Shown here: one piece after another, positions 21,524-29,614 of the stretch
Layout of the letters: every line of letters starts with the position of its first letter
Position numbering within the stretch: position 1 is the first letter of the stretch
DNA from: Gammaproteobacteria bacterium
GTDB taxonomy: Bacteria; Pseudomonadota; Gammaproteobacteria; Eutrophobiales; Eutrophobiaceae
Length of the DNA: 64,000 nucleotides
NCBI GenBank assembly: GCA_947480335.1
Contig: CANKCB010000006.1
Coordinates: 13,148-77,147 of the forward strand
Direction of reading: 5' to 3'
Notes under the pieces: model-generated
What the model was told of the DNA's origin: nothing
Seen by the model: only the letters and a program-made list of their open reading frames with translations
Databases searched by the model: none
Position numbers and translations under genes: made by a program

Positions 21524-21553
21524 CAAAAAAAACGGGTGCATGGCACCCGTTTT
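21524..21553 (-). terminator. Rho-independent terminator after amtB-1
   Basis: ACGGGTGC-ATG-GCACCCGT hairpin. On the minus strand it is followed by T8. Confidence 0.65.
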
Positions 21554-21580: not shown

Positions 21581-22879
21581 CTAGAAGTTATAGCCCCGTT
21601 CATCATGCGAGACCAGATCCAACCCCTCCATTTCCTGCTCATCTGTGACACGCAATCCTATCATCGCGTCAATTATTTTTAATAGTATGTAGGAAATCAC
21701 TCCACACCAGGCAGCGGTGGCAATAATTCCAGTTAACTGTGTTATCACTTGTGAACCCATGGAAACTTTCAAACCCAGACCACCGAACGTGTCAGCTGCA
21801 AATACACCTGTTAACAAGGTACCCAGAATTCCGCCAACACCGTGCACCGGAAAAACGTCCAGTGAATCATCTATGTGCAAACCACGTTTGACATATTGGG
21901 TAGAGTAATAACAAATTACTCCGGCCGAGATTCCGATTATCAATGCACCTGCAGGACCGACAAATCCGGAAGCCGGTGTAATCGTACCTAAACCGGCTAC
22001 CATGCCGGTGACAATTCCCAGTACACTGGGTTTGCCATGCTTGAGCCATTCACAACTCATCCAGGTGAGCGAACCGGCCGCTGCTGAGATATGGGTTACT
22101 GTCATGGCCATACCGGCATTCGCATTGGCCGCTAGCGCGCTACCGGCATTAAAACCAAACCAGCCAACCCACAACATCGAAGCTCCGGTTATCACAAGTG
22201 TCATATTGTGCGGGGGCATGGCCACCGACGGGAACCCTCTGCGTTTGCCCAGTATGACTGCAGCCACCAGCGCGGCTATACCGGCATTCACATGCACTAC
22301 GGCACCACCGGCAAAATCCAGAAAACCCATCTTACTGAGCCATCCGCCACCCCAAATCCAGTGACAAACCGGTGCATAGACCAACAGCATCCACAAGGAA
22401 GTAAACCACAACACGGCCGAAAATTTCATACGTTCTGCTGTTGCACCGATGATCAAGGCCGGAGTAATGATGGCAAAGGTCATCTGAAACATGAAAAACA
22501 CGGTTTCAGGTAAATCTCCCGTCATACTGTTCAGATTGACTGAGTCCATAAAGAATTTGCTAAGACCAATCATGTTATTGAGGCTGCCACCATTACCAAA
22601 TGCCAGCGCATAACCCGCCACCATCCACAGAATGGACATTAGGCATGCTATAGCAAAACATTGCATGGTAACGGACAACACGTTTTTGTGACGAACCAGT
22701 CCGCTATAAAATAATGCAAGACCCGGTAAGGTCATAAATAACACCAGCGCGGTTGAAGTCAGTATCCAGGCCGTATTGGCCCCGTTAATCGCGACATTCT
22801 GGGCAAAAGCAAACTGAGGAATCAAGATACTAATCAGGGCTATCATCCACAAAGGCTTGTTGAAATTTCCGATTTTCAT
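21581..22879 (-). CDS. amtB: Ammonium transporter (Amt family)
   Basis: 432 aa with a signal peptide and 11 TM helices of Amt/MEP type. Immediately downstream of glnK. Confidence 0.9.
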   Translation of the reverse strand: MKIGNFNKPLWMIALISILIPQFAFAQNVAINGANTAWILTSTALVLFMTLPGLALFYSGLVRHKNVLSVTMQCFAIACLMSILWMVAGYALAFGNGGSLNNMIGLSKFFMDSVNLNSMTGDLPETVFFMFQMTFAIITPALIIGATAERMKFSAVLWFTSLWMLLVYAPVCHWIWGGGWLSKMGFLDFAGGAVVHVNAGIAALVAAVILGKRRGFPSVAMPPHNMTLVITGASMLWVGWFGFNAGSALAANANAGMAMTVTHISAAAGSLTWMSCEWLKHGKPSVLGIVTGMVAGLGTITPASGFVGPAGALIIGISAGVICYYSTQYVKRGLHIDDSLDVFPVHGVGGILGTLLTGVFAADTFGGLGLKVSMGSQVITQLTGIIATAAWCGVISYILLKIIDAMIGLRVTDEQEMEGLDLVSHDERGYNF

Positions 22880-22896
22880 ATTTCTTTCTCCAGAGA

Positions 22897-23253
<357 letters not shown>

Positions 23254-23340
23254 CTAATATTTTTAGTGTTTTTTGATCTCTATTCAGGCACAAATAAAGT
23301 GCAAATTGCTCCAAAATTGCCCTGAATACGGCAAAAATAG

Positions 23341-23356
23341 TGCACGATATGTGCCA
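23341..23356 (-). promoter_or_regulatory. Sigma54-like -24/-12 element upstream of glnK-amtB
   Basis: The minus strand reads TGGCACATATCGTGCA (GG and GC correctly spaced). About 105 nt upstream of the glnK start. Also nearly palindromic, so identity is ambiguous. Confidence 0.4.
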
Positions 23357-23562
23357 CAAAATAATAGTGTAATAATAACAACAGGTTACAAGACTTCATT
23401 CGTCTGAATAGAGGGAAAAACATGCTGGAAATGCACCAAAATAAGACGTTTTTTAAGCACTACGCCCTGTTTTGGTTCAATTTAATTGATTATTAACGGG
23501 GAATTTAACCCGCTTGCGCTGGCAGGTTTGAAGTACAGTCAGGCCTAAGCTGAACCTGATGT

Positions 23563-23919
<357 letters not shown>

Positions 23920-23961
23920 TCATTTCGAGACTGCTATGCAATATAAGTATAACCCTTACTG

Positions 23962-24000
23962 ATAAAAAATGCAGGGTACACTTGTCAGTGTACCCTGCAT
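23962..24000 (-). terminator. Rho-independent terminator after second amt
   Basis: Perfect 13-bp stem ATGCAGGGTACAC-TTGTCA-GTGTACCCTGCAT. On the minus strand it is followed by TTTTTTAT. Confidence 0.7.
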
Positions 24001-24012
24001 GAATTTGGACTA

Positions 24013-25371
24013 TTACAGATTATAACCGCGCTCGTTATGCATGGAGACGTCCAGACCTTCCGTTTCCTGATCTTCGGTCACTCTTAGACCAATTATCACA
24101 TCAACCACTTTAAGGATGATGACAGTCAGGATACCAGTGTAAATCAGCGTGAATAACACACCTTTACATTGTGTCATTAACTGACCTACTATCGTTACAC
24201 CTTCAGCTAGACCTACACCACCCAGACTGGCATCAGCGCAAAGACCGGTCAGGATTGCACCGATGATACCGCCAACACAGTGCACACCGAATACATCCAG
24301 CGAATCATCATAACCAATGGCCTTCTTCAGCTTTACCGAGGCGAGGAAACAACCCACTCCCGCTGCAGCACCAATGATCAGCGCGCCAATAGGACCGGCT
24401 GTTCCAGATGCCGGTGTAATCGCCACCAGTCCGGCAACCGCACCCGAAGCAATACCAAGTACACTGGGCTTACCGTGCGAAAACCATTCTATCGTCATCC
24501 AGGTCAATGCAGCAGCAGCCGTCGCGATTTGTGTAACGGCCATCGCCATACCAGCAGTACCGTTTGCAGCAACAGCTGAACCGGCGTTGAAACCAAACCA
24601 GCCTACCCACAGCATACCCGCACCGATGATGGTGAAGTTCAGGTTATGCGGCATCATCGGGCTGGTCGGATAACCCTTGCGTTTACCCAGCATGATGGCA
24701 GCAATCAAACCGGCAATACCCGCATTGATGTGTACGACTGTACCACCAGCGAAATCAAGCACGCCCCAGTCCCACAACAGACCACCAGCACCACTCCAGA
24801 CCATATGTGCGATCGGGAAATAAACCAGCGTTACCCAGATACCCATGAACAGTAACATCGCAGAGAACTTCATACGTTCTGCAAAGGCACCGACGATAAG
24901 TGCCGGGGTAATAATCGCGAAGGTCATCTGGAATGTCATAAACACACTTTCCGGAATCGCGTAGGTCAGACTGGCATTAGTCATGCCGTTCAGAAATAAG
25001 CGGCTGGTACCACCGATGAACGAGTTAAAGTTGACCACACCTGACTCCATTCCTGTGACATCAAAGGCCAGACTGTAGCCATAAACCATCCACAGAATCG
25101 AGACCAGACAGGTAATGGCAAAACATTGCATCATTACTGACAGCACGTTTTTGCTTCTCACCATGCCGGCATAAAACAATGACAATCCGGGTATGGTCAT
25201 AAACAGCACCAGAGCAGTTGAAGTCAGCATCCAGGCTGTATCACCTGAATTCAGCACAGCATCTTGCGCCATTACCAGTGTAGGGCTTAACAAAGCAGAT
25301 AATGCCAGCAAGCTTTTGCCCATCCTGGATTTAAATGCATTGGTAAATGCATATTTAATTAAATGTGACAT
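24013..25371 (-). CDS. amtB: Ammonium transporter, second paralogue
   Basis: Amt family. Track ORF 24013..25551 was trimmed to the start MSHLIKY (ATG 25371, GAGG Shine-Dalgarno) followed by a signal peptide. Confidence 0.85.
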   Translation of the reverse strand: MSHLIKYAFTNAFKSRMGKSLLALSALLSPTLVMAQDAVLNSGDTAWMLTSTALVLFMTIPGLSLFYAGMVRSKNVLSVMMQCFAITCLVSILWMVYGYSLAFDVTGMESGVVNFNSFIGGTSRLFLNGMTNASLTYAIPESVFMTFQMTFAIITPALIVGAFAERMKFSAMLLFMGIWVTLVYFPIAHMVWSGAGGLLWDWGVLDFAGGTVVHINAGIAGLIAAIMLGKRKGYPTSPMMPHNLNFTIIGAGMLWVGWFGFNAGSAVAANGTAGMAMAVTQIATAAAALTWMTIEWFSHGKPSVLGIASGAVAGLVAITPASGTAGPIGALIIGAAAGVGCFLASVKLKKAIGYDDSLDVFGVHCVGGIIGAILTGLCADASLGGVGLAEGVTIVGQLMTQCKGVLFTLIYTGILTVIILKVVDVIIGLRVTEDQETEGLDVSMHNERGYNL

Positions 25372-25393
25372 AGTTATATTCCTCAATGCCTGA

Positions 25394-25732
<339 letters not shown>

Positions 25733-25800
25733 TTAAAATTCCTCCAGGTTTGGTTATTGCCCTGACCGACCCATGTCAATCAGGGCTTTTGATTACTATC

Positions 25801-26523
25801 TCAGAAACTTCCTGATACTGAGAAAACAACCGCTGTGTCACACAGATTGGTACCACTGAAACAATCCTTTTCTTTCAAATCAGTATCAGATGCTTTTATC
25901 GCAAAAGTGTAAGGACCGAGCACCTTGCTCAGGCTGACATTGTATTCAAGCCAGTCAGGGGTGCCCCAGGCGGCTTCATCTTTTACGCTCTGCTGACCAA
26001 TATGGAAGCCCAGACTGAAATCACTTGGCAGAGTAAAGCCCAAGTCACTGTATACCCACCAACCTGCACCGCTATTGAACGAGAAGTCGTCAGCATACAT
26101 AAAGCCGGCACCCAGTTTCGGAGCCAGATCCCCACCAAAGGTATAGCTCAAACTTGGACCTACTTCCCAATAATCTACGCCAACGCCATCACCACTCGAT
26201 GGATATTCATAATAAGTACCGAGTAATTTCCAGGCTAAACCACCATCCGTTTCACCGGCCAGGCCACCGTAATAATCGATTTCCAGTCCACCACCGAAAT
26301 TAATGTTGGATGCCCAGGTGCCGAGGAACAAACCGCTTTCATGTGCAAAATCAAAACCTCCTTGAATGGTCGGGTTATTGTCTGTCTGCGACTGGCCTCT
26401 GAATAAATAATCCGATGCCAGGGTCACATTGCCCGTGAACGAATAAGGTGAGTCCTGTGCGGACACAATTGCAGGAACCATCAGAACTACAGCTGAAAGG
26501 ATCAGGCTAAACAACTTTTTCAT
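25801..26523 (-). CDS. TorF-family putative outer-membrane porin (Gcw_chp/TIGR02001-like), copy 1
   Basis: Signal peptide. Conserved start SPYSFTGNVTLASDYLFRGQSQTDNNP and C-terminal Phe typical of this beta-barrel family. Confidence 0.65.
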   Translation of the reverse strand: MKKLFSLILSAVVLMVPAIVSAQDSPYSFTGNVTLASDYLFRGQSQTDNNPTIQGGFDFAHESGLFLGTWASNINFGGGLEIDYYGGLAGETDGGLAWKLLGTYYEYPSSGDGVGVDYWEVGPSLSYTFGGDLAPKLGAGFMYADDFSFNSGAGWWVYSDLGFTLPSDFSLGFHIGQQSVKDEAAWGTPDWLEYNVSLSKVLGPYTFAIKASDTDLKEKDCFSGTNLCDTAVVFSVSGSF

Positions 26524-26574
26524 GACTCTCTATCTCCATTGTTGATTGTATTGGTACTACTACGCTGAGAGATT

Positions 26575-26590
26575 GCATTAAGCGTGCCAT
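26575..26590 (-). promoter_or_regulatory. Sigma54 (-24/-12) promoter for porin copy 1
   Basis: The minus strand reads TGGCACGCTTAATGCA versus consensus TGGCACG-N4-TTGCA (one mismatch). About 50 nt upstream of the start at 26523. Confidence 0.55.
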
Positions 26591-26673
26591 TAATATTTTT
26601 ATTATTAATAACAATTAGATAGGGAATTAATTTGGTTGTAATATTTCAGAAAATCTTCTGGAAACACTGATAA

Positions 26674-26690
26674 CGCACCATAGTGATGCT
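26674..26690. promoter_or_regulatory. NtrC-like enhancer half-palindrome upstream of the porin sigma54 promoter
   Basis: cGCACCatagtGaTGCt versus TGCACC-N5-GGTGCA (14/17). About 100 bp upstream of the -24/-12 element. Confidence 0.35.
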
Positions 26691-26772
26691 CTAATTTACC
26701 GCGACGCACAAACATAGTGCCATGTTGGACGAAACAGTGTTTGTTTTATACAAAACATCCACTTTGACAAAT

Positions 26773-26806
26773 AAAAAAGCCCCGACCAATTTGCATCGAT
26801 CGGGGC
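26773..26806 (-). terminator. Rho-independent terminator after porin copy 2
   Basis: GCCCCGA...TCGGGGC hairpin. On the minus strand it is followed by TTTTTTATTTG. Confidence 0.6.
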
Positions 26807-26849
26807 TGATTGGTCAGATTACTGACCAGACTAAGTTTTACAGGATCTG

Positions 26850-27572
26850 TTAGAAACTACCAGATATTGATAAAATTACAGTCGTATCACAGGTATTGGC
26901 ACCACCAAAACACTCGGAAGGTTTCAAGTCAGTATCTGAAACCTTGATTCCCAAGTTATACGGACCAATTGCCTTGGTCAAACTGGCATTGTATTCCAGC
27001 CAATCCGGGGTACCCCAGGTTGCTTCATCCTGAATAGACTGCTGTCCAAGGTGGAAGCCCAGGCTGAAATCAGCTGGTAAGGTAAAGCCCAAATCACTGT
27101 ATACAAACCAACCTTCACCACTGTTATAGGAGAAGTCGTCGGCATACATGAAGCCGGCGCCCAGTGTTGGGGCCAATTCACCACCAAAGGTATAGGTCAG
27201 ACTTGGACCTGCTTCCCAGTAATCAGCGCCTACACCATCACCACTGGAAGGATACTGATAGTAGATACCATTCAGATCCCAAGACAGCCCATCAACTAAC
27301 TCACCGGTCATACCACCGTAGTAGTCAATTTCCAGACCACCAGCAAAATTGATATTGGATGCCCAGGTACCCAGATACAGGCCAGACTCATGAGAATAGT
27401 CAAAACCACCCTGAATTGTCGGGTTATTATCGGTCTGTGACTGGCCTCTGAACAGGTAATCGGACGCCAGGGTCACATTGCCAGTGAAACTGTATGGTGA
27501 GTCCTGCGCAATGGATGCAAGCGGTATGGCTGCAATGACTAATGTAGCTACTATCTTGGATAATTTATTCAT
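26850..27572 (-). CDS. TorF-family putative outer-membrane porin, copy 2 (tandem paralogue, ~75-80% aa identity to copy 1)
   Basis: Same length (240 aa) and motifs as copy 1. Confidence 0.65.
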   Translation of the reverse strand: MNKLSKIVATLVIAAIPLASIAQDSPYSFTGNVTLASDYLFRGQSQTDNNPTIQGGFDYSHESGLYLGTWASNINFAGGLEIDYYGGMTGELVDGLSWDLNGIYYQYPSSGDGVGADYWEAGPSLTYTFGGELAPTLGAGFMYADDFSYNSGEGWFVYSDLGFTLPADFSLGFHLGQQSIQDEATWGTPDWLEYNASLTKAIGPYNLGIKVSDTDLKPSECFGGANTCDTTVILSISGSF

Positions 27573-27797
27573 ATTTAATTTAACTCCTTGGTTTTAAAAA
27601 CAAATTTACTACTGCTGCAAATATAACACAGTTGTGTTGTATTTTATTCACAATGTAGTAAAAACACTATTTACTCTGTAAGTTCAAATATGGTGCATGA
27701 AAGGACGACTTCAGCATTAATAAGCTCAAATTCTCTATGTGGTCAGGTAGCATCAATATGCACTGCAACTTCATATGCCTGCTGATAACATAGCCGC

Positions 27798-28091: not shown

Positions 28092-29614
28092 ATGCTCATG
28101 GACGTCGCCGTTGTATTTAGCCGCGCACTCGCCGGAATAAACTCACCTCAGGTCACCATCGAAGTCCATTTGTCACGTGGACTGCCCGGCATGTCAATTG
28201 TTGGGCTGCCAGAAACTGCCGTGAAGGAAAGTCGGGATAGAGTGCGCAGCGCCCTGCTCAATAATCATTTTGATTTTCCGCTACAACGTATAACCGTCAA
28301 CCTGGCGCCGGCCGATCTACCCAAGGAAGGTGGACGTTATGATTTACCGATTGCCATAGGAATACTCGCCGCGTCGAGTCAGATTCCAATCAATCAATTG
28401 CAACACTATGAGTTTGTCGGCGAACTAGCCCTGACCGGTGAATTAAGAGCAGTCCATGGTTGCCTGCCCATGGCCAATTCAACCCGCTCTACAGGACGTA
28501 GTCTGATTTTACCAAGAACCAATGCGGAAGAAGCGGCGTTGATACCCGACTTGGCGATTTACCCGGCAACGCATTTGTTACAGGTCTGCACCATTTGACC
28601 GGTAGCCATCCGCTTGCAGAATTCCATTGCACGCACACGAGGCAGACTCGCCAATATCCGAACCTGGTTGATATACGCGGCCAACATCAAGCCAAACGAG
28701 CGATCGAAATTGCCGCAGCGGGCAGTCATAACCTGCTGATGATAGGGCCTCCTGGTACGGGCAAAACCATGCTCGCAGAAAGATTGCCAGGACTACTGCC
28801 ACCCATGAGTGAGACCCAATCACTGGAATCGGCGGCTATCTGCTCGATTAGCAATCAGGGATTTAATATTCAAAGCTGGGGCCAGCGTCCGTTCCGCAGT
28901 CCACACCATACATCGTCTGCAATCGCACTGGTCGGAGGTGGCAGTCATCCACGACCAGGAGAGATTTCACTCGCGCATCAGGGTGTGCTGTTTCTGGATG
29001 AGTTACCGGAATTTGATCGCAAGGTACTCGAAGTGTTACGTGAACCGCTGGAATCGGGAAAGATCACCATCTCCCGAGCAGCACATCAGGCAGAGTTTCC
29101 AGCACGCTTCCAGTTGGTTGCCGCAATGAATCCCTGCCCGTGTGGATATTACACCGATACCTCTGGCCGTTGTGAATGTACCGCCGAACAAATCCGACGT
29201 TACCGTTCCCGCATTTCAGGCCCATTATTGGATCGTATCGACATGCAAATTGAAGTACCCAACATGACCCGTCAGATAATCACCGGCGCAGATACCGGCA
29301 AACGGGAAACCAGTGCCGAAGTACATGAACGCGTGGTGGTGGCCTACCAGCTGCAATTACAACGCGCCGGGAAACCCAATAACTGGCTGGACAATAGTGA
29401 AGTGGAACGCTACTGCCCACTTGATACGCAACAGCGACAACTGCTGGAAAAAATAATCGTTAAATACAATCTGTCTGCCAAAGCGTTGCATCGCATCCTG
29501 AAAGTAGCCAGGACCATTGCAGACCTTGCCCAATCCGATTCCATACTCACTCCCCATCTGCAAGAAGCTATAAATTACCGACGACTTGATCGTTTGCAAC
29601 GTCAGCAAAATTAA
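28092..29614 (+). pseudogene. comM: Mg-chelatase-like ATPase ComM/YifB, split by a -1 frameshift near 28588-28595 (genuine pseudogene or sequencing error)
   Basis: ORF 28092..28598 matches the YifB N-terminus and Lon-like domain. ORF 28595..29614 matches the AAA+ module (Walker A GPPGTGKTM) and C-terminus. Restoring one base in ACCATTTG gives the continuous ...LQVCTHLTGSHPLAE. Confidence 0.7.

Follow-up and report, generated by a model that had tools for sequence, protein, structure and literature searches.

The 64-kb window analysed here, that is the whole 64,000-nucleotide (nt) stretch of a gammaproteobacterial contig, carries two tandem genes for proteins of the TorF (Gcw_chp) family of putative porins, which we refer to as porU and porD for the upstream and the downstream copy in the direction of transcription, followed by genes for a PII protein (glnK1) and an ammonium transporter (amt1). 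All genes that belong to this finding are located on the minus strand and are transcribed from high to low coordinates. A preliminary description of this DNA, made from the letters alone, had noted two TorF paralogues of 240 amino acids (aa) and about 75-80% identity immediately upstream of a glnK-amt cluster, with a sigma54 promoter in front of the paralogue that it called copy 1. Both proteins are indeed 240 aa long, 75% identical and above the family cutoffs, and glnK1 and amt1 directly follow porD on the same strand. The sigma54 element does stand before copy 1, which is our porD; however, this is the downstream gene of the pair in transcription order and most likely the head of an operon. 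The features of this region are as follows, in the coordinates of the window.

27572..26850, minus strand: porU, upstream TorF-family paralogue, 240 aa (open reading frame (ORF); PF09694 and TIGR02001)
26849..26524: porU-porD intergenic region, 326 bp
26807..26778, minus strand: intrinsic terminator after porU, 13-bp stem with 7 GC pairs, then TTTTTATTTG (terminator scan)
26706..26720: distal NtrC-type dyad GCACAAACATAGTGC, perfect GCAC-N7-GTGC, centre at about -150
26675..26689: proximal NtrC-type dyad GCACCATAGTGATGC, 1 mismatch, centre at about -119
26609..26621, minus strand: AT-rich IHF-like stretch TATCTAATTGTTA, 7/9 match to YAANNNNTTGATW, between enhancer and promoter
26589..26574, minus strand: sigma54 -24/-12 promoter TGGCACGCTTAATGCA, 11/12 consensus positions
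26537..26533, minus strand: porD Shine-Dalgarno sequence GGAGA
26523..25801, minus strand: porD, TorF-family porin behind the sigma54 element, 240 aa (ORF; PF09694 and TIGR02001)
25800..25733: porD-glnK1 spacer, 68 bp
25786..25759, minus strand: intercistronic stem-loop, 12 bp, without a U-tract (RNAfold free energy -23.3, z-score -4.9)
25732..25394, minus strand: glnK1, PII protein, 112 aa (PF00543; NF007946 at 182.8 bits)
25371..24013, minus strand: amt1, ammonium transporter, 452 aa, ATG at 25371 (PF00909, TIGR00836)
24000..23969, minus strand: strong intrinsic terminator after amt1, 14-bp stem, then TTTTTTATCAG (terminator scan)

Profile PF09694 (Gcw_chp; cutoff 24) matched porD and porU with 111.6 and 122.9 bits, respectively, and TIGR02001 ('TorF family putative porin'; cutoff 47.15) matched them with 144.9 and 160 bits. 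Residues 2-20 of both proteins are helical and precede a signal-peptide cleavage motif after residue 22 (between VSA and QD in porD, between SIA and QD in porU), while both C-termini read ...SGSF with the terminal Phe expected of an outer-membrane barrel. Twelve family positions that are invariant or at least 90% conserved in alignments of 25 and 66 sequences (D38, Y39, R42, G43, S45, Q46, T47, G55, D58, W70, E81 and E120) are present in both paralogues. The protein alignment of porD and porU is free of gaps over the 240 aa, and the genes share 72% of their nucleotides, with identical codons at 98 of the 179 positions where the amino acid is the same. These values indicate an old duplication whose two copies have been under purifying selection, and they rule out that porU and porD underwent gene conversion recently. 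Gene amt1 was given 452 aa, as it is called in two identical metagenome contigs (L001 and L002), and an alternative 512-aa ORF starting at 25551 would overlap glnK1.

Predicted promoter and transcription unit of porD

The sigma54 element TGGCACGCTTAATGCA, which the preliminary description had placed about 50 nt before the start codon, lies 51 nt before the porD ATG (26523), on the coding strand and in intergenic DNA, with the GG-N10-GC spacing. Only two sites in the window match TGGCACG-N4-TTGCW with at most one mismatch, and this element is one of them; looser matches are uninformative, since sites with at most two mismatches were found 21 times against 13.5 expected. Transcription of porD is predicted to start near 26563, 12 nt past the -12 GC, which would leave a 5' untranslated region (5'UTR) of about 40 nt. 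The NtrC-like palindrome previously noted about 100 bp further upstream was recovered as the proximal dyad GCACCATAGTGATGC, 86-100 bp upstream of the -24 element, and is accompanied by the second, perfect dyad GCACAAACATAGTGC 31 bp beyond it. Exact GCAC-N7-GTGC sequences occur only twice in the window, both times in intergenic DNA within the gln cluster. In Escherichia coli the enhancer sites of glnAp2 are located at -108 and -140, and the porD dyads at about -119 and -150 resemble this arrangement of paired sites approximately three helical turns apart. The AT-rich IHF-like stretch between the dyads and the promoter is weak as a match in a single sequence and contains invariant T, A, T and TG columns among the relatives (alignment positions 230-239); it may represent a DNA-bending site, and the enhancer probably has an IHF-type bend. 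To judge from the sequence, the two dyads together with this stretch form a full classical enhancer architecture.

The elements are conserved in an otherwise diverged spacer. When eight orthologous upstream regions were aligned, the mean column identity was 61%, while the two dyads, the AT-rich T-A...T...TG pattern, the TGGCA(C/T)G...TGC promoter and the GGAGA site stood out as invariant islands, with the proximal dyad kept as TGCACCAnAATGATGCA. For a wider survey of TorF genes beside amtB or glnK, which the preliminary description had proposed, close homologues were aligned and the alignment was run against a set with a single genome for each GTDB species, which yielded 55 loci. Because this alignment was used in place of the 25-sequence alignment, which was too diverse for a locus scan, the survey is biased to carriers of [LMI]A[ST]DYL[FY]RG and TDNxP[TA]IQG. 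Linkage was called by tblastn with the GlnK and Amt proteins of the window, and a PII and/or Amt gene was found directly 3' of the porin gene on the same strand at 26 of the 55 loci, including those of Methylophaga, Sedimenticola, Allochromatium, Thiocystis, Halothiobacillaceae, Ectothiorhodospiraceae, Chromatiaceae, Bermanella and Lysobacterales. The porins of the linked loci are 28-75% identical to porD, and in a neighbour-joining tree the linkage to glnK/amt is scattered over deep branches. Likewise, glnK and/or amt follows the porin gene in five of seven further homologues (35-43% identity) on metagenome and genome contigs, several of which also share the divergent ubiK-comM neighbours of the window.

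Motifs were counted at the 30 glnK/amt-linked loci with enough upstream sequence. A -24/-12 element with at least 10/12 consensus positions was present at 23 of these (about 0.7 expected) and one with 9/12 at three more, while the GCAC-N7-GTGC dyad occurred with at most one mismatch at 26 and exactly at 17 (about 0.9 expected). The background, determined over 1 Mb of the same loci with the true sites included, was 0.025 per 400 nt for sigma54 elements of at least 10/12 and 0.029 for exact dyads. The dyad is located 80-135 bp upstream of the promoter, with a spacing that is constant within clades, and paired dyads are about 30-33 bp apart, mostly 31-32 bp. Given the frequency of the sigma54 element at the linked loci relative to its background, its presence is not due to chance. 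Upstream of two unlinked homologues (L059 and L061) neither a sigma54 nor an NtrC motif was found, and this absence together with the conservation of the motifs at linked loci makes the regulatory reading well supported in silico. In Sedimenticola two paralogues exist, one linked to glnK-amt and the other free-standing (L020, L021, L024, L026 and L028 versus L025, L032 and L033), and the free-standing paralogue has kept a sigma54 element and, exactly 80 bp further upstream, a perfect NtrC dyad. The earlier suggestion of Ntr-type control of the porin gene thus gains support from phylogenetic footprinting across Gammaproteobacteria, and we infer that transcription of porD depends on NtrC.

The preliminary description had regarded the porin gene alone as the target of this promoter. 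Whereas the sigma54 element itself was borne out, it most likely serves a porD-glnK-amt unit, because neither a sigma54 motif nor a terminator was detected by motif and terminator scans in the spacer between porD and glnK1 and strong terminators are located on both flanks. We infer co-transcription from this arrangement, with an operon porD-glnK1-amt1 that most likely ends at the terminator at 24000..23969. The intercistronic stem-loop is a recurrent feature, as an analogous GC-rich hairpin of unrelated sequence and without a U-run was recognized by eye in approximately 18 of 25 porin-glnK spacers; 10 of the 25 spacers reached z-scores of -2.9 or lower with mononucleotide shuffling. This structure probably acts as a stabilizer of the mRNA or as a (partial) attenuator and would set the ratio of porin to GlnK/Amt, so that the porin segment would outlast or outnumber the glnK-amt segment.

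In contrast to porD, which heads the Ntr operon, porU is wired differently, since it lacks Ntr elements: neither a sigma54 nor an NtrC motif was found in the 400 nt upstream of porU. A sigma54 promoter was considered for porU and rejected, as the TTGCA near 27615 is preceded by TG rather than GG at -24. The window shares a conserved block of about 110 nt, 5' of porU and of its equivalent, with two lake metagenome-assembled genomes (L003 and L004), and this block includes a low-confidence candidate for an extended -10 element:

27620..27628, minus strand: TGtTATATT, candidate extended -10 element for porU (sequence, conserved block)

The terminator hairpin of porU is also present in these two lake genomes. 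Its sequence features therefore mark porU as a gene that stands by itself, with a terminator of its own and an upstream region of a non-sigma54 type. Another hairpin, the perfect palindrome TTGGTCAGATTACTGACCAG, was observed at 26810-26829, right after the porU stop codon and before the main terminator, so that porU is followed by two stem-loops.

Regulation of this kind has precedents. In E. coli the glnK-amtB operon depends on sigma54 and NtrC and carries upstream dyads of the TGCACC-N5-GGTGCA type, so that in both cases PII and Amt genes stand behind a -24/-12 promoter with NtrC dyads; however, the E. coli operon has no outer-membrane gene, whereas the window has a TorF porin gene before glnK and in addition the stem-loop. 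The supplement of a regulon reconstruction lists as an NtrC target 'CHP02001', a conserved hypothetical protein, in 12 genomes of two taxonomic groups, and the main text does not mention it (Leyn et al., 2016; PMC5343134). We take this entry, which the table gives without an accession, as TIGR02001 from the shared number, and since it appears in the regulon table, the NtrC link of the family had already been predicted without comment or function; these regulons do not cover the lineage of the window (uncultured freshwater Gammaproteobacteria) or the tandem paralogue. In Herbaspirillum seropedicae, according to PMC3023670, the operon nlmA(orf1)-glnK-amtB is NtrC-dependent and induced about 20-fold under nitrogen limitation (citing Noindorf 2006 and Huergo 2010), and NlmA was detected in membrane extracts under nitrogen limitation only and placed by the authors 'most probably in the periplasm'. 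The likeness to the window is one of layout and regulation, with a gene for an envelope protein followed by glnK and amtB; Herbaspirillum is, however, a betaproteobacterium, and NlmA was assigned to the periplasm rather than the outer membrane. A TorF profile search gave no Herbaspirillum homologue among the 120 matches listed. Experimentally, NtrC was found to activate a porin-glnA unit in Methylomonas sp. DH-1 (PMC12799797) and outer-membrane porin genes in Burkholderia cenocepacia (PMC5491218). These systems resemble that of the window in that porin genes are activated by NtrC alongside core nitrogen-assimilation genes, but their partner is glnA or none instead of glnK-amt, and the comparison is one between porins in general. 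In summary the regulation is not new, as the NtrC link was previously contained in regulon catalogues and was probably seen experimentally in Herbaspirillum, and for this reason the regulatory part alone adds little; of greater interest is whether this barrel is a channel dedicated to the passage of ammonium or cations through the outer membrane.

Predicted barrel and the TorF family

An AlphaFold2 model of porD, calculated on a 66-sequence alignment, predicted a signal helix followed by 12 beta-strands with a predicted local distance difference test value (pLDDT) of 92.4 and a predicted template-modelling score (pTM) of 0.82. A Foldseek search of this model against the PDB returned outer-membrane barrels, the best barrel-to-barrel matches being the 12-stranded specific porins KdgM, VhGalP and NanC, with target-normalised TM-scores of 0.81 for KdgM (4fqe; root-mean-square deviation 3.5), 0.66 for NanC (2wjq) and 0.67 for VhGalP (8xua) at sequence identities of only 8-13%. 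A sequence profile search of the PDB gave no solved relative. Membership in the KdgM/NanC family was considered and rejected, because the Pfam scan gave PF09694 only and the identity is so low, even though a 12-stranded barrel of monomer size fits. Likewise, a general trimeric porin of the OmpF/PhoE type, with 16 strands and about 340 aa, was rejected for the 240-aa, 12-stranded porD, which reached target-normalised TM-scores of 0.33-0.38 with OmpF and OmpC. While KdgM, NanC and VhGalP share the 12 strands and are the best structural matches, they are channels for acidic sugars, whereas PorD itself is strongly acidic.

The calculated net charge of the mature proteins is -19 for porD and -23 for porU, with an isoelectric point of about 4.05, and over the 66 homologues it is mostly between -20 and -34 (range -7 to -34; mean of glnK-linked members -22.9). 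At the predicted lumen positions D58, E81, D83, E120, D160 and E193, 73-100% of the family members have an acidic residue, basic residues are nearly absent, and the remaining positions are occupied by Ser, Thr, Asn, Gln, Gly and aromatic residues. This pattern of acidity would fit a small cation-selective channel. The most conserved segment of the family is the first extracellular loop (L1) SDYLFRGQSQTDNxP (residues 37-51), in which R42 is the only conserved basic residue and which, in the model, is likely to form a constriction element. Moreover, a conserved Cys pair (C221/C228) is found in the last loop.

The TorF family comprises 10,368 clusters at 50% identity with E-values of at most 1e-3, and presumably owes its name to a locus inducible by trimethylamine N-oxide. 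The literature on TorF/Gcw_chp proteins was found to be near-absent, a search for torF in Shewanella returning one irrelevant paper, in agreement with the preliminary description, according to which the family is without an established function. Outside the glnK/amt loci, a TorF-family porin gene is the last gene of betB-betA-BCCT clusters for choline uptake and oxidation in Pseudoalteromonas and, by a betA-like gene order, in Fluctibacter:

L067, 4013-4714: bet-linked porin
L069, 4037-4699: bet-linked porin
L039, 4986-5684: bet-linked porin

This location suggests that choline, which is a quaternary ammonium cation, enters through the outer membrane by way of the bet-linked porin. On plasmids of Psychrobacter, Marinobacter and Halomonas (L070, L071 and L072) TorF porin genes adjoin genes for CzcA-type RND pumps, CDF transporters and CadR as well as insertion sequence (IS) elements, and are thereby placed in metal-cation resistance islands. 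In the plasmid collection, no glnK or amt gene was found within 4 kb of the 11 TorF loci examined, out of 35 matching records. Apart from a Bermanella member in front of a urea-type ABC transporter, other TorF neighbourhoods were uninformative. Overall, the recurrent theme among TorF neighbours is that of small cationic or nitrogenous solutes, which is compatible with an acidic lumen and with the origin of the family name. As a side observation, proteins P0082-P0090, P0231 and P0232 have 450-505 aa and two full profile matches, and could be either double-barrel fusions or tandem paralogues merged by gene callers; given these members, tandem pairs like porU/porD seem to recur.

A possible role of PorD in ammonium uptake

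We consider it somewhat probable on balance that porU is a stand-alone channel gene, while porD heads an NtrC/sigma54-controlled porD-glnK-amt operon whose product raises the permeability of the outer membrane for NH4+. The preliminary description had likewise suggested an Ntr-regulated channel of the outer membrane, with ammonia, urea or a different nitrogen compound as its possible substrate. Under nitrogen limitation, phosphorylated NtrC would bind the dyads at about -150 and -119, and a DNA loop over the AT-rich IHF-like stretch would allow it to activate sigma54-RNA polymerase at the -24/-12 element (26589..26574). The transcript would run through porD, the stem-loop without a U-tract, glnK and amt, and end at the terminator at 24000..23969. 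PorD would then be exported by the Sec system and inserted as a 12-stranded barrel, the lumen of which, with its conserved Asp and Glu and almost no Lys or Arg, would raise the permeability to NH4+ or related small cationic nitrogen solutes and thereby assist scavenging by AmtB at low external ammonium. PorD could thus represent a nitrogen counterpart of the phosphate-starvation porins. These, PhoE in E. coli and OprP/OprO in Pseudomonas, are 16-stranded trimers that are anion-selective by virtue of basic residues. The likeness consists in a nutrient-limitation regulon that induces a charge-selective outer-membrane channel together with high-affinity uptake across the inner membrane; in contrast to PhoE and OprP, however, PorD is predicted to be 12-stranded, probably monomeric and acidic in its lumen, and its gene appears to be under the control of NtrC/sigma54 rather than PhoB.

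That the barrel is a dedicated outer-membrane channel for ammonium (or cations) is plausible, if not quite probable, and we found no description of such an 'ammonium porin' in the literature. More tentatively still, TorF/Gcw_chp may be a large, overlooked family of small cation-selective channels of the outer membrane. Its glnK/amt-linked branch would be an NtrC-induced ammonium channel that forms, together with AmtB, a scavenging route across both membranes; the channels of sister branches would admit choline (bet-BCCT), methylated amines (tor) or metal cations (czc/CDF), and porU and porD would be the constitutive and the starvation-induced copy, respectively. If PorD were a dedicated ammonium channel, the route by which ammonium is taken up would be complete, and its efficient scavenging in oligotrophic waters, where ammonium is very scarce, would be accounted for. 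A function would then also be available for the family, whose more than 10,000 sequence clusters carry annotations such as 'putative' or 'unknown'.

Several observations weigh against PorD as an ammonium channel in an Ntr operon. The usual assumption is that ammonium needs no more than the general porins to cross the outer membrane. The stem-loop 3' of porD could stop some or all transcripts before glnK1, and ntrBC and rpoN were not seen among the window genes examined, so that their presence in the genome is an assumption. The lumen-facing positions were assigned from the alternation of hydrophobic and polar residues in the modelled strands and not from coordinates, and one of them, K99 (26227-26229), is basic in porD, while 92% of the 66 homologues have Asp or Glu there; the position is also acidic in porU and in the closest orthologues of porD, and K99 may be a lineage-specific change of the pore charge in the Ntr-driven copy. 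In addition, the highly conserved L1 loop could, in the model, plug the barrel. A Bermanella paralogue is located directly upstream of a urea-type ABC transporter (binding protein PF13433 and permease), and in the alignments no residues of note separate glnK-linked from unlinked porins, for which reason the sequence does not reveal the substrate specificity. Finally, our searches returned no expression, binding or transport data for this organism or for the TorF family.

Some of these points favour other explanations. PorD might be a nitrogen-regulated channel for another nitrogen compound, such as urea, short amides, methylated amines or amino acids, with its co-expression with glnK-amt reflecting just a shared Ntr response. 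The urea-type neighbours in Bermanella, the members that follow betB-betA-BCCT, which handles choline, the family name taken from a gene of a trimethylamine N-oxide system and the lack of specific residues in the glnK-linked group are in line with this possibility, which we nevertheless regard as unlikely, as glnK/amt is the dominant and phylogenetically deep partner (31 linked loci versus 2 of the urea type) and the unit in the window contains no other nitrogen-uptake system. For the Bermanella urea-linked paralogues no convincing -24/-12 element was found. It is quite improbable, in our estimate, that PorD is instead a plugged or structural barrel with an NlmA-like role in the envelope or in signalling under nitrogen starvation. 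Such a role would agree with the loop of 15 residues that is conserved best in the family and that, modelled with high confidence, could fill a 12-stranded lumen, and with Herbaspirillum NlmA (a 'nitrogen limitation membrane protein'), to which mutational work on its operon has assigned no function (PMC3023670). However, the closest folds, KdgM, NanC and VhGalP, are true 12-stranded channels, the predicted lumen is polar and acidic and not packed with hydrophobic residues, and the repeated pairing with inner-membrane transporters is typical of substrate porins. The abundance of window matches with up to two mismatches and the fact that the porD start site is a sequence prediction would also allow the sigma54 and NtrC motifs to be chance occurrences or unused, with porD expressed from a different promoter or on transcripts that read through from porU. 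This is very improbable, since the element has a single mismatch and lies in intergenic DNA on the coding strand, is invariant in eight genomes within a diverged spacer and recurs at 23 of the 30 linked loci, and since a strong terminator separates porU from porD. An NtrC/sigma54-induced PorD that admits ammonium or related cations is the explanation that we prefer.

Putative second glnK-amt promoter and neighbouring genes

Downstream of amt1 the gln cluster continues on the same strand with the following features.

23901..23563, minus strand: glnK2
23235..22897, minus strand: glnK3
22879..21581, minus strand: amt2
21553..21529: terminator after amt2

Altogether three GlnK paralogues with 70-73% mutual identity and two Amt genes are thus contained within 4.2 kb (21581-25732), and the same five-gene glnK/amt layout was found in five related genomes or contigs (L004 and L006-L009). 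A second sigma54-type promoter, TGGCACATATCGTGCA, is located at 23341-23356 on the minus strand, 105 nt upstream of glnK3-amt2, and shows no variation among six genomes. About 100-130 nt upstream of it, at approximately 23440-23500, are conserved elements that resemble NtrC sites, namely one of the TGCTCCAAAAAGGGGCA type and, about 31 bp downstream of this one, a GTGCA half-site. With this second promoter and its NtrC-like elements before glnK3-amt2, the cluster holds two putative tandem Ntr operons. Gene glnK2, flanked by the amt1 terminator on one side and the second sigma54 promoter on the other, stands by itself, and a promoter of its own was not obvious. A perfect GCAC-N7-GTGC dyad at 23288-23302, at about +35 of the second promoter and inside the glnK3 5'UTR, is kept only in the window and in L004, and could be a downstream enhancer, a roadblock or a chance occurrence. 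No Rfam family matched the window at gathering thresholds.

On the other side of the porin genes, comM/yifB (Mg-chelatase-like) is split near 28590 into two ORFs at 28092-28598 (168 aa) and 28595-29614 (339 aa). The split results from a 1-bp deletion in a C-run, which reads CACC in the window and CACCC in contig L001 with an intact product of 505 aa. The same deletion is present in contig L002, and it may be either a population polymorphism or an assembly error.

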